Source of the DNA: an uncultured Candidatus Micrarchaeota archaeon
GTDB taxonomy: Archaea; Micrarchaeota; Micrarchaeia; Micrarchaeales; Micrarchaeaceae
Assembly (NCBI GenBank): GCA_963741095.1
Contig: CAVUGN010000008.1
Location: 1-17,036 of the forward strand
DNA length: 17,036 nucleotides
Direction of reading: 5' to 3'
The notes beneath the pieces were generated by a model that saw only the letters and a list, made by a program, of their open reading frames with translations, was not told the DNA's origin and searched no databases. How positions within the stretch are numbered: the first letter of the stretch is position 1; every line of letters starts with the position of its first letter. Positions 6,780 to 14,402 of this stretch are shown here, piece after piece. The position numbers and the translations under genes are program-made.

Positions 6780-7750
6780 CCTATCCTCACCGAATCTATC
6801 CGATACCTCTGGTTTATCGTGCACCTCTTAATGTTTGCCTTAATGCCCGCATCCAGCATCTTCTCGGCAACAAGTGCTATCATCGCGCCGTTGTCGGCGT
6901 TGAACTCATCTGGCGCAACGCAGAATCTTGCCCCGTGCGAGCCAGCCATGATGCTCAGCATCTGGCGCAATCTCTTGCTCTGCGCCACGCCGCCGCACAC
7001 TATCAATTCCTTCCTGTTCTTCAGCAGCAGTGCCCTTTCCGTTGCCTCGCAGAGCATGGCAAAGGCGGTTTCCTGCAGCGAATAAGCTACATCCTTCAGG
7101 TTCCTGTTCTTGAGCGTCTTTATCGCGCTTGTAAGCAGGCCGGTGAAGGTGAAGTCCATGCCCTTGACCGTGTACGGCAGCTCAATGTACCTGCCGCCCT
7201 CTGCGACTCTCGCAACACTAGAACCCCAGGCGGGGTCAAGCCCGGCGGACCTGGCGAAGCTGTCCAGCATGTTGCCCACGCCAATGTCAAAAGTCTCCCC
7301 GCACACGTGATAATGCCTGTAAGGCGCTTTCTCAATCGCAAGTATCTGGGAATTGCCGCCGCTGACATAGAGCACCAGCGGGTCAGCCAGATGGAAAAGA
7401 TGCTTCGTTATCTCGATGTGCGCAACCGCGTGATTCACGTCATAGAGCGGCAATCCATACTTTTCCGAAAGGGCACTTGCGGCAAGCTGGCCCATCCTCA
7501 GGCATGATCCTATGCCCGGACCCTTGGTGTAGCCCACGGCCTCTATGTCGTCAATGCCCAACCCGCAGCGCAGGAACGCCTCTTTCAGCAGCCTGCCGAC
7601 GTTCTTCGCGTGGAAATCCGCCACCTTCGAGGGTATCATGCCGCTGCTTCCCACATCGTACATGCGCTTTACGTTCGCAACTATCTTGCCGTTGTCGGCT
7701 ATGCCTATGCCAAGGGTGTGTGCGCTGCTCTCAATCCCCAAAACAGCCAT
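6773..7750 (-). CDS. kae1: tRNA N6-adenosine threonylcarbamoyltransferase Kae1
   Basis: VLGIESSAH, GPG, VNHAVAH (HxxxH), LYVSGGNSQ, GETFDIGVGN, LPYTVKGMD, GGVA and DNGAMIA. Start taken at MAVLG (ATG 7750). Confidence 0.96.
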   Translation of the reverse strand: MAVLGIESSAHTLGIGIADNGKIVANVKRMYDVGSSGMIPSKVADFHAKNVGRLLKEAFLRCGLGIDDIEAVGYTKGPGIGSCLRMGQLAASALSEKYGLPLYDVNHAVAHIEITKHLFHLADPLVLYVSGGNSQILAIEKAPYRHYHVCGETFDIGVGNMLDSFARSAGLDPAWGSSVARVAEGGRYIELPYTVKGMDFTFTGLLTSAIKTLKNRNLKDVAYSLQETAFAMLCEATERALLLKNRKELIVCGGVAQSKRLRQMLSIMAGSHGARFCVAPDEFNADNGAMIALVAEKMLDAGIKANIKRCTINQRYRIDSVRIGW

Positions 7751-7819
7751 AGAACATGCCCAAAATCCGATAGAAAGCATTGGCTGGGAAACTTAATAAC
7801 TTTATCAACACCTTCAGGA

Positions 7820-8125
7820 TCAGGCGACGTCTATGCTGTCCGGCTTGTAGCCTATGCTCTCCAGGGCCTTCTTTGCTGCCTGCCTGTGCTCGCCCTGCAA
7901 TTCCACATAATTAGATTTGTATGTCCCTCCGCAGGCAAGCATGCGCTTCAGGCTCTTCGCAGTTCTTTCTATCTCCTCCGGGCTTATGCCCTCGACGACC
8001 GTGACGACCTTGTCGAACTTCGCCTTCTTGATGTAGACCTTGATCTTCGTCTCCGTTTCCCTATCAAGTACGTTGCAGACACAGATTTCAAGCGGCAGGC
8101 CACACTTTGGGCAGATATCCGGCAT
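7820..8125 (-). CDS. sui1: Translation initiation factor aIF1 (SUI1 family)
   Basis: N-terminal Zn knuckle CPKCGLPLEICVC, KVVTVVEG, LKRMLACGGTYK and ELQGEH. The ATG at 8125 is one nt after the rpl29 stop. Confidence 0.95.
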   Translation of the reverse strand: MPDICPKCGLPLEICVCNVLDRETETKIKVYIKKAKFDKVVTVVEGISPEEIERTAKSLKRMLACGGTYKSNYVELQGEHRQAAKKALESIGYKPDSIDVA

Positions 8126-8126
8126 T

Positions 8127-8333
8127 TTAGACCTTTGCACCTCTCTCTTTTAGCACCGTGTTGATCTTGGCGATAGTCCTCCTTATCTCGCGGTTCTTTA
8201 CGATCTTGCTTGACACTCCCGTCGAGGCTATCTTCCTCCTCTCGATGCTCAGCTCCAGCGACAGCTGATCGATCATGCCGTTGAGCACGCCGTCAGACTG
8301 CTGCCTTATGTCTCGAATTTTTATAAAAAGCAC
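8127..8333 (-). CDS. rpl29: 50S ribosomal protein L29 (uL29); start GTG 8333 or more likely ATA 8324
   Basis: N-terminal KIRDIR and C-terminal REIRRTIAKINTVLKER match the uL29 signature. Small and basic, and precedes sui1 as in archaeal ribosomal clusters. Confidence 0.88.
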   Translation of the reverse strand: MLFIKIRDIRQQSDGVLNGMIDQLSLELSIERRKIASTGVSSKIVKNREIRRTIAKINTVLKERGAKV

Positions 8334-8359
8334 CTTCTATAGTATTCTTCTCGCCAACG

Positions 8360-8455
8360 TATTTAAAACTTTCCAGAGAAGTCTAAGAGAAGATGTTTAG
8401 AGCAAGATCCTTTTAAGAACCTTCCCCACTCTCTAAACACCTTCAGCTTTTTATA
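8360..8455. promoter_or_regulatory. Divergent promoters for rpl29-sui1 (-) and lonB (+, probably leaderless)
   Basis: GAAAGTTTTAAATA (BRE-TATA) on the minus strand at about 8360-8373. TTTTATA at 8449-8455, about 25 nt before the lon ATG. Confidence 0.55.
8389..8444. repeat. 14-bp imperfect inverted repeat with 28-nt spacer
   Basis: GAAGATGTTTAGAG (8389-8402) versus CTCTAAACACCTTC (8431-8444; reverse complement GAAGGTGTTTAGAG), a 13/14 match. Confidence 0.75.
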
Positions 8456-8479
8456 CTTATAACGCGTATTGTCGATAGT

Positions 8480-10405
8480 ATGGCGAAGTCTAAGACCACC
8501 GCGAATGTGAAGATACCCAAAAACCTGATAGACCAGGTCATAGGACAGAGAAAAGCGGTCGAGATAATAAAGAAGGCGGCACGGCAGCGGAGGCACGTGC
8601 TGCTGATAGGCTCTCCAGGAACGGGAAAGACGCTGCTCGCGCAGGCGATGGCCGAGCTGCTGCCGACCACCGAGTTGGAGGACGTGCTGATCTACAGGAA
8701 TCCTAACGACGAGAACGAGCCGCTGGTAAAGGACGTTAAGACATACCCTAACTACAAGCCCGGGGACAAGCTCGGCGACGGGCAGGGAAGGATGCTGCTG
8801 CAGAAGGAGAGGATGAAGAACAGGATGTCCATGAACAAGGGCAGCAGCTGGGTAACTCCGATAATAGTCATACTTGTCATAGCGATTTTTGCAGTATCGT
8901 TGAGCGGTCTGATAAAGGGCGAGGAGCTGATAGTCCTTGCGGCGCTGATGCTGGGAATTCTGATATTCGGCTCGATGATCATATTCATAGGAGGCCTCTC
9001 CAAGCGGGTCGGCATACCCGGCGCCGGGGAGATTAACGAACCCAAACTCATAGTCGACAACACCGGCCTTACCCACGCGCCTTTCATAGACGCGACGGGC
9101 GCGAAAGCCGGTGCGCTGTTCGGCGATGTCAGGCACGATCCGCTGCAGAGCGGCGGCCTCGGCACACCCGCGCATCTCAGGGTCGAAAGCGGCGCAGTGC
9201 ACAAGGCAAACAAGGGAGTCCTGTTCATAGACGAGATATCGAGCCTTGAGCCAAGGGCGCAGCAGGAACTTCTCACGGCAATGCAGGAAAAGAAATATTC
9301 GATAACCGGCCAGAGCGAGATGAGCTCCGGCGCTCTTGTGAAGACCGCTCCGGTGCCCTCGGATTTCATACTTGTCGCTGCGGGAAACCTCCAGGATCTT
9401 CAGCACATGCATCCCGCACTTAGGTCAAGGATCCGCGGTTACGGCTACGAGGTCTACATGGAATCGACAATGGAGGACAACAAGCTCGACAGGAAACTGT
9501 TGGAGCAGTTCGTCGCCCAGGAGGTGCAGAAGGACGGCAAGGTGCCCCAGTTCGACGAGAGCGCCATAGACGAGATAACCGAAGAGGCGAGGCGCAGGTC
9601 AGGGAGGAAGAAGAGAATGACGCTTGTATTGAGGGATCTCGGCGGCCTTGTAAGGGCGGCCGGAGACATCGCGGCGGAGAAGAAGAAGGCATTCGTATCA
9701 AGGGACGAAGTGGTGGCGGCCAAGACGCTTGCCGCATCGATAGAGGGGCAGGTGGTCACGCAAGAGCTGGAATACCGCAAGGGCTACGACGTGTTCAGGG
9801 TTAAGGGCTACAGCATAGGCAAGGTCAACGGCCTGGCAGTCATAGGCGCGGCTCCGACCTATTCAGGAGTGCTAATACCGATAGTTGCAGAGGTAACCCC
9901 CGCGGGCTCGAGATCCGAGGGCAAGTTCATACCGACCGGAAGGCTCGGCAAGACCGCAACCGAAGCCGTGAAGAACGTCAGCGCGATAATAAAGAAGCAC
10001 ATGGGTAAGGAGACTGCCAACTACGACATGCACGTGCAGTTCCTCCAGATCGAAGGGGTGGAGGGCGACAGCGCCAGCATATCCGTTGCCGTTAGCATAA
10101 TATCCGCCATGGAGAACGTGCCCGTCGACCAGTCGGTCGCGATGACCGGCTCGCTGTCGGTCAGGGGCGAGGTGCTGCCGGTCGGCGGAGTGACCAACAA
10201 GGTCGAGGCCGCGATCGACGCTGGCATAAAGACCGTGATACTTCCGGTGAGCAACCTCGACGACGTTTCGATAAGCAAGGACAAGCTGAAGAGGATAAAG
10301 CTGATACCCGTAAAGACACTGGCAGACGTGCTAAAGTACGCTCTAAAGAGCGGTGCAAGAAAGGACGCCATAATAAAGGAGCTTCGGGGCTACGAGAAAA
10401 CGTGA
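8480..10405 (+). CDS. lonB: Archaeal membrane-anchored ATP-dependent protease LonB
   Basis: LIDQVIGQ, Walker A GSPGTGKT, two TM helices inserted in the AAA+ domain, [12 protein letters not shown], Walker B VLFIDE, and the Ser-Lys dyad motifs EGDSAS and [10 protein letters not shown]. Confidence 0.97.
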
Positions 10406-12396: not shown

Positions 12397-14133
12397 TCAC
12401 TGATTGCCCGCCATCCTGGCAGCATTCTCGACGATCTCGCCGCACGTGATGTTCTCACCGTCGTATCGCAATATCCTGTCCTTTATCTCAATGCCGGTCT
12501 CCATCCGTATGACCTTTGCCAACTGCCCCGTGTAGTTGCATTCCACATCGATCAGGTGCTTGCCGCTCAGCATGCGATTAGTCCTGCCTGCATCAAGCGG
12601 CAGCAAATAATTGAATGATATCAGGCCGAAGTCCAGCCCTTTCTTGTTGAGCGTAATCATCGCCTCCCTCGCGACAGACGTGGTCGAGCCGAAGGTGACG
12701 AGGAAATGCTTCGCATTCCCGTTCTCGACGGTCGGAACGAAAACATTCTCGTTTTTCAGCATCGTATCCATCTTCCGCATGCGCTTCTCCTGCATCTTCT
12801 TCCTCATTGCGACATGTTCGTCCAAGCCGGAAAGCACATCGCTGACAAGATCGCCATACTCATTGTGTTCATAGCTGGGTGCGACGAAAGAAAGGCCCTT
12901 CATCCCAGGCACGGAGCGCGGCGATATCCCGTCATCGGTCAGCGCGTATCTCTTGAACCTGCCAGAAACGCTAGAAGCATCAGCAATCTTCCCTCTATCT
13001 ATCTTTATCGAATCGACATCGAAGCTTGCCACGCTTTCGACGCGCTCGGAGATGAATGCATCCATCAACACCAAAACAGGGCACTGATACCTATCGGCAA
13101 GATTGAACGCGTCTGCTGTAAGGCTGAAGCTCTCCTCCATGCTCCTTGGTGCTACGACTATACGTGGAAACTCGCCCTGTGAAGCGTGCATAACGAAAAG
13201 CAGGTCCCCCTGCTCGGTCTTTGAAGGCAGTCCAGTACTGGGGCCTGTCCGCTGTGACTCTACGACGACTATCGGCGTTTCTAGCATTCCCGCAAGTCCC
13301 AATGCCTCTACCATTAATGCAAAGCCTCCGCCACTAGAGCCGCACATGGCCCTTACGCCAGCAGACGCTGCGCCTATGGTTGAATTTATTGCCGCAATCT
13401 CGTCCTCGGTCTGCTTGTAGAGCACGCCCCTGTCGGCGTGTGCGGCGAACCACTGAAGTATGCCGCTTGCCGGCGTCATCGGGTACGCCGCGTAATACTT
13501 GCAGCCTGCCGCGTATGCCCCCAGCGAGAGCGCGGTGTTGCCGTCCAACAAGTATCTCGGCTTGCCATCGCCCCTTATGCTGTAGCGCTTTTCGACACCT
13601 TTGTAGTTGTAGCCCTCTGATGCCACCTTTATGTTCTTGTTGACCACATCGATGCCCTTGCGCAGGAACATCTTGTTTATGACCGCGTCGAACAGGCCGA
13701 TGTCTATGCCAACCACCTTCAGGACGGTCCCAATCGAGACCATGTTCCTCATTATCGAATCCCCGCCAGCGGCCATGACTATCTCAAGGAATGGGATGCC
13801 AATCAGGCTGTAAGAGCGGCCTTCGAGCTCCTTCACGTTGCACTTTGCCGAATCATAGATCACTATCGCCTTGTCCGCCAGGTGGCTTTTCTGGTTTGTT
13901 ATGGACTCCTGGTTCAGCGCGACAAGCACGTCGATGTTGTCTCCGGCACTGTAGAGCTTCTCGTCGCCAATCCTTATCTGGTACCAGACGTGGCCCCCGC
14001 GTATCACGGACTGATAACCGCGGTTGCCGAAGACCTCCATCCCACTGAGCGCGGCTATCTTGCCGAGCAGCGCTCCGGTTGATTCGACGCCGTCTCCGTT
14101 CGCGCCCGCAATACGTATGCTAACGTTCGCCAT
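12397..14133 (-). CDS. 2-oxoacid:ferredoxin oxidoreductase subunit alpha (gamma-alpha fusion)
   Basis: IAGANGDGVES, IRGGH, YPMTP, QTEDEIAA, SSGGGFALMVE, QRTGPSTGLPSKTEQGD and ECNYTGQLA. Start at MANV (ATG 14133). Confidence 0.95.
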   Translation of the reverse strand: MANVSIRIAGANGDGVESTGALLGKIAALSGMEVFGNRGYQSVIRGGHVWYQIRIGDEKLYSAGDNIDVLVALNQESITNQKSHLADKAIVIYDSAKCNVKELEGRSYSLIGIPFLEIVMAAGGDSIMRNMVSIGTVLKVVGIDIGLFDAVINKMFLRKGIDVVNKNIKVASEGYNYKGVEKRYSIRGDGKPRYLLDGNTALSLGAYAAGCKYYAAYPMTPASGILQWFAAHADRGVLYKQTEDEIAAINSTIGAASAGVRAMCGSSGGGFALMVEALGLAGMLETPIVVVESQRTGPSTGLPSKTEQGDLLFVMHASQGEFPRIVVAPRSMEESFSLTADAFNLADRYQCPVLVLMDAFISERVESVASFDVDSIKIDRGKIADASSVSGRFKRYALTDDGISPRSVPGMKGLSFVAPSYEHNEYGDLVSDVLSGLDEHVAMRKKMQEKRMRKMDTMLKNENVFVPTVENGNAKHFLVTFGSTTSVAREAMITLNKKGLDFGLISFNYLLPLDAGRTNRMLSGKHLIDVECNYTGQLAKVIRMETGIEIKDRILRYDGENITCGEIVENAARMAGNQ

Positions 14134-14402
14134 GAAAAACACAACCTAAAACACATTCGAATTTATGGATGCCTTGCCCTCCCTGCGGTGCAGTCGCACC
14201 GACAACAAATATTTTACGTAATGCATTAATAACCTGCCCCATCTCGGGGGTGGAATCGCATACAATTTCTGCGCCTTTACCCACCCAATGCGACGGTAAC
14301 AACCGGCAAGCCAAATGCAACTTCGTCAAGAGTCAAACATCACAACAAGGTATAATAGGGAGCTAACCCCAATAATCATGGAAGTCAGCGATTCGTGTAT
14401 TC

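Follow-up and report, generated by a model that had tools for sequence, protein, structure and literature searches.

A probable AUA start codon of rpl29 joined to the aIF1 gene in a family of Micrarchaeota: a candidate new form of infC/eIF1-type control

Where does translation of rpl29, the gene for ribosomal protein uL29 (L29), begin in an archaeon whose copy of the gene holds no ATG at its N-terminus, and what would the answer mean for the gene that follows it, sui1, which encodes the initiation factor aIF1? The question is raised by 17,036 nt of a contig from an uncultured Candidatus Micrarchaeota archaeon of soil (CAVUGN010000008.1), the whole of which we call the window; the genome it belongs to (G000) comprises 1.08 Mb on 11 contigs and carries sui1 as a single copy. 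On the minus strand of the window, the start region of rpl29 reads gAAGGTG-CTTTTT-ATA-AAA-ATT-CGA-GAC-ATA-AGG, with GTG and ATA in the same frame, and the ORF (open reading frame) as listed runs from this GTG to the TAA stop over 68 codons. Both gene identities are supported by Pfam profiles: uL29 matches PF00831 over positions 2-57 of the 57 in the profile (E 1.8e-7; score 31.5 bits, cut-off 24.5), and aIF1 matches PF01253, the SUI1 profile (E 2.5e-13; score 50.7 bits, cut-off 25.5). That the N-terminus of rpl29 lacks an ATG had been noticed in a first-pass annotation of this DNA, and the minus-strand reading and the ORF translations bear this out. Gene callers admit no start codons other than AUG, GUG and UUG, the three with which genes of archaea are assumed to begin.

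The first-pass annotation went further and proposed that rpl29 starts at the ATA, that the GTG belongs to the Shine-Dalgarno sequence, and that aIF1 limits its own synthesis through this unusual codon. In this study, we have compared the locus with its relatives, and we consider it likely that rpl29 starts at ATA, ATT or ATC throughout the window's family, and a little less likely that it starts at ATA in the window's genome taken alone. The rpl29-sui1 layout is thus presented here as a candidate new form of the control described for infC and eIF1, in which the start codon is well supported and the regulation is what we infer. For the full model, in which an AUA start, coupling of the two genes and feedback by aIF1 act together, we estimate a probability of about 0.5.

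The start codon of rpl29 in the family and beyond

In the Micrarchaeota family to which the window belongs, sui1 was searched in 129 genomes and found in 119, and the DNA upstream of it was then read. Five loci were left out, one from a genome flagged as unpublished (G137), two with the sui1 match at a contig end (G075, G096) and two in which the contig ends inside or before L29 (G014, G111). The analysed set contains 114 loci from 29 genera; these relatives are kin, and counts of loci overstate the independent support that our reading receives, counts of genera being safer. At the position of the window's ATA, the alignment has ATA in 88 loci, ATT in 14, ATC in 9, ATG in 2 and GTA in 1. ATT and ATC together occupy this column in 23 loci spread across 10 genera, and GTG, TTG and the Leu and Val codons are absent from it except for the single GTA. 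Counted from the start column, L29 has exactly 65 codons in 84 loci.

A second feature accompanies this column. GGTG stands 5-7 nt upstream of it in 111 of the 114 loci, a recurrence which argues that the pattern is not due to chance. A spacer of 6 nt, found in 93 loci, keeps the GTG in frame, which is the state of the window; in 18 others a spacer of 5 nt (17 loci) or 7 nt (1 locus) puts it out of frame. As a result of this and of other changes, 19 loci from 12 genera have no usable in-frame ATG, GTG or TTG, and the start column is their sole candidate start. The GTG is frame-shifted in 16 of these and separated from the column by a stop codon in two (GTG TTT TGA ATA; GTG AAT TGA ATT), and the remaining one has no GTG and a stop just upstream of the column (GTT GAT TAA ATA). 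Two further frame-shifted loci offer only an in-frame TTG or GTG far upstream. Several of the states without a usable GTG are common to the species of one genus, and they must therefore have been inherited rather than have arisen as random errors.

These loci bear on the gene model expected from standard gene callers, in which the in-frame GTG is the working start in G000, on a leaderless mRNA or one with a very short leader, the protein begins MLFIKIRD... and the ATA is an ordinary Ile codon. We regard this model, the second of the alternatives to ours, as improbable. The GTG is unusable in 21 loci from 12 genera (18 frame-shifted, 2 stop-separated and 1 without it), and L29 is intact there at 65 codons.

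Three other interpretations of the column were tried and abandoned. The bias towards ATA was dropped as evidence for a start codon, ATA being the codon that these genes favour for Ile (343 of 543). A reassignment of AUA to Met was rejected, since ATT and ATC share the column and conserved Ile positions are also encoded by ATA. Finally, a mini-ORF that would begin at the out-of-frame GTG, end at a TAA overlapping the ATA and be followed by reinitiation could be drawn for the loci with a 5-nt spacer, and it misfits those with ATC. As a separate observation, the GTA occurs in G054, where the start column has two mismatches to AUG, lies behind an out-of-frame GGTG and leaves no usable start visible; the region is duplicated on two contigs as identical copies (L053, L304), and this genome has ~4% contamination.

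The first-pass annotation had also considered that the relatives might all use ATG at this position. The sister family does so, which confirms where the N-terminus lies, and the window's family does not, as it keeps ATA, ATT or ATC in 111 of its 114 loci. Of 118 sister-family genomes, 107 yielded sui1 (a tally that includes one genome flagged as unpublished, G164, with its sequence unread), and 67 loci were read. Their start column holds ATG in 58, TTG in 1, ACG in 2 and ATA in 1; in the other 5, an ATG stands one to three codons further upstream. At the ATG column the protein begins MKIKDLR. Because the sister family has ATG at the same column, MK(I)(K)D(L)R is the real N-terminus of the nearest relatives that use ATG. 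The near-cognate codons of the sister family are those of L030 (G034), L148 (G233) and L174 (G239), ACG twice and ATA once, and two of the three loci have no canonical alternative. In L030 the ACG directly follows the TAA stop of the upstream S3 gene (GGTGAATAAACG), and in the ATA locus the codon lies behind an out-of-frame GGTG.

In 27 further families of the class, 46 loci were read and the L29 column could be placed in 41, all of which have a canonical ATG for L29 (41/41). In 31 of them this ATG is three codons upstream (ATG-GCN-ATH, translated MAI-) and has GGTG or GAGG 5-7 nt ahead of it. The column that serves as start in the window's family encodes I, L, V or M in these other families. 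On this comparison, GGTG at 5-7 nt shows itself to be the normal predicted ribosome-binding site of rpl29 in the class.

Could the ATA be a mistake of the assembly? An error that changed a true ATG into ATA is very improbable, although the source is a metagenome-assembled genome and the depth of the public-run contigs is low (2 to 7). A DNA contig from the public run X1 covers 8170-8480 with 0 differences from the window, and a contig from the RNA library X8, from a ~93% relative, covers 8284-8480 and shows no difference at 8322-8336; ATA is also present in a genome of the same genus and in the 88 family loci. X1 is possibly the source sample, hence not independent, and guards against an assembly slip. 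The evidence from the public runs consists of assembled contigs, which confirm letters and cannot show transcript ends or expression, and the X8 contig, which spans the intergenic region, possibly reflects DNA carry-over. Taken together, the proposal of an ATA start is supported by the codon column of the family, by the loci that have no alternative and by the ATG of the sister family.

Table 1. Coordinates of the rpl29-sui1 locus in the window
Feature	Position	Strand	Remarks
rpl29 (uL29)	8127..8324	-	65 codons + stop TAA (8129-8127); Pfam PF00831
sui1 (aIF1)	7820..8125	-	101 codons + TGA stop (7822-7820); Pfam PF01253
Putative Shine-Dalgarno AAGGTG	8331..8336	-	includes in-frame GTG (8333-8331), the start codon for ORF finders
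Spacer CTTTTT, 6 nt	8325..8330	-	equals codons 2-3 under a GTG start
Proposed near-cognate start ATA of rpl29	8322..8324	-	codon aligned across relatives
Junction TAA-A-ATG, rpl29 stop/sui1 start	8123..8129	-	A at 8126, sui1 ATG at 8125-8123
GGTG within conserved R-G-A codons of rpl29	8138..8141	-	12 nt 5' of the sui1 ATG
Predicted BRE/TATA promoter AAGTTTTAAATACGTT of the rpl29-sui1 unit	8356..8371	-	weight matrix

The probable ribosome-binding site and the predicted transcript start

The evidence points to the GTG as part of the Shine-Dalgarno sequence. The 3' end of the G000 16S rRNA is GATCACCTT (GAUCACCUU), the complement of AAGGUGAUC, and the expected Shine-Dalgarno is therefore AAGGUGAUC; the AAGGTG of the window pairs with this end over 6 bases. 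In the family, the GTG is preceded by G at position -1 in 111 of 111 loci and by A at -2 in 88 of 111. As a start codon needs no such bases, their conservation again points to a Shine-Dalgarno. The window's spacer of 6 nt between GGTG and ATA lies within the range used by other genes of G000, where a GGTG is followed by an ATG and a long ORF in 64 of 188 cases at 5 nt, 28 of 253 at 6 nt and 20 of 147 at 7 nt, other spacers giving ~0.03-0.12. The first-pass claim that the GTG is part of the Shine-Dalgarno is in line with this complementarity, with the 5-7 nt spacing and with the conserved G and A upstream.

The 16S gene itself (C1:98605-100598, L236) is 1994 nt long compared with a model of 1478 positions, which implies the presence of at least one insertion or intron. 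The sequence at its 3' end is GATCACCTTAAAA, without the usual CCTCC, and for this reason the Shine-Dalgarno of this genome is taken to be of the AAGGTGATC type.

The strength of the site and that of the codon vary together. GGTG is found upstream in only 5 of 59 loci of the ATG-using sister family, and in both members of the window's family that have ATG it is degraded to GGTA. Where the codon is weak the Shine-Dalgarno is strong, and vice versa.

The first-pass annotation had drawn a parallel with the OFOR alpha gene, which was said to have the same Shine-Dalgarno geometry. The motif GTG-TTTTTC-ATG is indeed present there (14142-14131); the upstream bases are AGGTTGTG and not GGTG, and we regard this gene as only a loose parallel to the rpl29 start region. 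Its ORF (12397-14142, minus strand) is listed from the GTG at 14142, with the ATG three codons downstream behind AGGTTGTG, and the listed GTG may belong to the ribosome-binding region.

Near-cognate starts are not a general habit of the genomes of this family. In G000, long ORFs that open with ATA, ATT or ATC 5-7 nt after a GGTG are no more frequent than background (0.043-0.062, versus 0.19 for ATG). Furthermore, the control genes read in 28-30 family loci have canonical starts: L14 and S4e begin with ATG in 28 of 28 loci each, L24 with ATG or TTG in 28 of 28, and S17 is canonical in 29 of 30, with TTG in 17, ATG in 12 (one of them a codon upstream) and ATA in 1. Rpp29 was dropped as a control gene since its N-terminus is too variable for alignment. 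The TTG starts of S17 (loci L274-L303) indicate that weak canonical starts are common on the ribosomal protein genes of the family. The single S17 ATA (L293, G024:C7) lies behind GTGATTGT and is possibly another near-cognate start, in a genome whose rpl29 has the GGTG out of frame.

The position of the predicted promoter relative to GGTG was also considered. A TATA weight matrix was built from the family loci (consensus AAGGTTTTAATATCTT), replacing a regular-expression search that had found 46 of 111 promoters. The score of the B recognition element (BRE) and TATA box exceeds 8 bits in 93 of 111 loci and reaches 13.8 in the window. From the end of the TATA 8-mer to GGTG there are 24-25 nt in the window (family median 28, interquartile 24-32.5, range 21 to >35), and the usual archaeal promoter geometry places the mRNA 5' end at AAGGUG here or a few bases before it. 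A very short leader that carries the Shine-Dalgarno would fit this predicted 5' end. A scan of the window with sigma-70 and terminator models gave nothing useful, as these models do not apply to archaea.

Several points tell against an ATA start and have to be set beside this evidence. The GTG is in frame in 93 of the 114 loci, including the window, and a start that gives MLFIK... is possible for G000. Its position is that of the ancestral MAI- ATG of the other families, which keeps the GTG-start model alive for loci like that of the window. The codons of the start column (ATA 79%, ATT 13%, ATC 8%) resemble the Ile usage of the same genes (63%, 16% and 21%), which is what normal Ile usage at the fourth column of a GTG-started protein would give. 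The usual spacer of the family, 6 nt, is not the optimum of G000, which is 5 nt. The predicted 5' end lies within a few bases of the GTG and would also suit a leaderless-like use of GUG. In addition, it is unusual for a ribosomal protein to be made from a weak start codon. Nevertheless, under the GTG-start model it would be difficult to understand why codons 2-3 lack the A-I that the other families conserve and vary freely across the family, even to the point of stop codons in 3 loci, why the G and A ahead of the GTG fit the 16S 3' end and not the context of a start codon, and why the spacing between TATA and GTG ranges from 21 to >35 nt, too wide a spread for a start that is strictly leaderless.

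The junction with sui1 and the proposed feedback

An AUA start on rpl29 would be of particular consequence for aIF1 if translation of the second gene depended on that of the first. In all 114 family loci sui1 starts with ATG at -4 to +2 nt from the L29 stop (+1 in the window). The junctions are TAATG in 56 loci, ATGA in 20, TAAATG in 19, TAA-N-ATG in 8, TAGATG in 6, TAA-NN-ATG in 4 and TGATG in 1; in the sister family, TAATG accounts for 47 of 54 loci. Within the class, L29 and SUI1 are adjacent in 100 of 105 loci. The joined TAA-A-ATG that had been reported for the window is present in its sequence, and the tight linkage of the two genes proposed from it extends to the whole family.

No GGTG is found at 5-7 nt before the sui1 ATG in the family loci, which leaves sui1 without a normally spaced Shine-Dalgarno. 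The sole GGTG near it falls within the conserved R-G-A codons of L29, at a distance of 10-12 nt in 112 of 114 loci, and this spacing is at background level for real starts in G000; it may help reinitiation. No stable RNA structure that would hide the sui1 start or the AUA is predicted (z = +1.63 at the junction and z = -0.24 at the 5' end). According to a study in Haloferax (PMC10666635), termination-reinitiation requires overlaps or very short gaps. Given an ATG at -4 to +2 nt and the lack of a normally spaced Shine-Dalgarno for sui1, translational coupling from rpl29 to sui1 is likely.

The sui1 start takes other forms elsewhere in the class. In some other families of Micrarchaeia (the group of L178, L179, L206 and L213), sui1 starts with a TTG that overlaps the end of L29 (GTTGCCTGA), and L213 (G357) has no ATG, GTG or TTG at the column of MPEICP (CTG AAA GAG GAA ATA TGT).

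The two genes also stand apart from the rest of the old ribosomal protein cluster. In G000, Rpp29-S17-L14-L24-S4e is found on another contig (C1), and rpl29-sui1 therefore forms an independent unit, flanked upstream by a divergent gene for the LonB protease and downstream by the gene for Kae1/TsaD. Directly after the sui1 stop, the minus strand at 7801-7815 reads GAAGGTG-TTG-ATA-AAG, a second AAGGTG that lies 5' of the Kae1/TsaD gene. The likely start of Kae1/TsaD (MAVLGIESS, ATG at 7750) is 30 nt inside its ORF as listed.

Based on these data, we propose the following model. The rpl29 and sui1 genes would form a two-gene unit with its own promoter, and the short mRNA would carry AAGGUG near its 5' end. 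Pairing with the 16S 3' end would place the initiator tRNA six bases further on, at the AUA, so that L29 would begin M-K-I-R-D-I-R at a near-cognate codon and the in-frame GUG would be part of the ribosome-binding site. Ribosomes that finish L29 would reinitiate at the adjacent sui1 AUG, and the output of both proteins would be set by the readiness of the cell to accept AUA as a start. An excess of aIF1 would then lower the synthesis of L29 and aIF1 and a shortage would raise it, in a negative feedback in which the sensor codon sits on the upstream cistron.

The last step has a biochemical basis in another archaeon. In the Sulfolobus 30S complex, as published work describes it, mRNAs with AUG and with AUU were bound when aIF1 was absent and only those with AUG when it was present (PMC4705826; also PMC6237735). 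As Sulfolobus aIF1 rejects AUU in vitro, by analogy a feedback loop of aIF1 on the rpl29 start is plausible. That the whole family would possess an archaeal counterpart of infC and eIF1 autoregulation, with uL29 as the sensor cistron at AUA, AUU or AUC and aIF1 made only by reinitiation, is a broader claim which we put forward tentatively, at somewhat less than even odds.

The main rival of this model accepts AUA, AUU or AUC as the true start of rpl29 and holds that aIF1 does not regulate it: the codon would only keep output fixed at a low level, or would have persisted as a tolerated relic after ATG changed to ATA, with a strong Shine-Dalgarno and promoter to offset the change. All the evidence for the start site applies to it equally. 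The strong GGTG of the family, compared with its rarity in the ATG-using sister family, looks like a compensation of expression level, as does the GGTA of both family members with ATG, and the codon mix of the start column is that of neutral Ile usage. On the other hand, a single third-base change from A to G turns ATA into ATG, yet ATG is found in 2 of 114 loci, and the column has come to hold ATT or ATC in as many as 10 genera. Weak starts of the usual kind, GTG and TTG, never appear at the column, although S17 uses TTG in 17 of 30 loci. Again, of the five genes tested (L29, S17, L14, L24 and S4e), the odd codon is found only on the one that is joined to a start-fidelity factor. In the light of these observations we judge fixed output unlikely, and we favour the model in which aIF1 would act on the rpl29 start.

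Precedents and significance

Self-limitation of a start-codon proofreading factor is known from two other domains of life. Bacterial infC, which encodes IF3, is reportedly autoregulated through a start codon of the AUU class (Butler et al. 1987), and eukaryotic eIF1 is said to be autoregulated through an AUG in poor context (Ivanov et al. 2010). The unit described here resembles infC in several respects. In both, the gene of a fidelity factor hinges on a start codon mismatched at its third position (AUU, AUA or AUC), a class of codon disfavoured by that same factor; related organisms retain the unusual codon, and ribosomal proteins are encoded in the unit as well. The differences are that the weak codon lies on the upstream uL29 cistron and that the factor's own AUG would be reached by the proposed reinitiation; moreover, aIF1 has the SUI1 fold and is unrelated to IF3, and its repression of the unit is putative. 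With eIF1 the unit shares a homologous factor of the SUI1 family and the logic by which more factor raises stringency, so that its own weak site is used less. In eIF1, however, the weak element is the Kozak context on a scanned, capped mRNA, whereas here it would be a near-cognate codon led by a Shine-Dalgarno, with a coupled second cistron. Of the hallmarks of such control, we found a unit that encodes the fidelity factor and a non-canonical start, on the upstream cistron, that is conserved in 111 of 114 loci.

The gene pair is not new in itself. Outside the class, rpl29-sui1 within an S10/spc-like cluster of ribosomal protein genes is an ordinary archaeal arrangement. The order, L29 then SUI1, is the same in the window's family, and the short overlap is also seen in the sister family; unlike the ordinary pair, that of the window's family lies away from S17-L14-L24, behind a predicted promoter of its own.

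A full-text literature search, with subscription journals mostly outside its reach and supplements unread, returned no description of archaeal aIF1 autoregulation and none of a conserved AUA, AUU or AUC start of an archaeal main ORF. In the main text of a ribosome profiling study of Haloferax, ~30% of the putative alternative sites are near-cognate and were set aside (PMC7261190).

If our reading of the start codon is correct, an essential and universal ribosomal protein starts with AUA, AUU or AUC in about a hundred species, and third-position near-cognate starts would be in regular, selected use in Archaea. The annotated N-terminus of L29 would be wrong wherever the GTG is in frame, and elsewhere the gene would be truncated or missed, which could affect completeness scores based on marker genes. 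The sister family, with ATG at the same codon, offers a natural contrast between two designs.

In conclusion, our results point to a candidate archaeal case, with a new layout, of the self-limiting start-codon proofreading factor known in bacteria as IF3 and in eukaryotes as eIF1. If the model holds, the dosage of aIF1, the stringency of initiation and the supply of a large-subunit protein would be tied together in one homeostatic loop.

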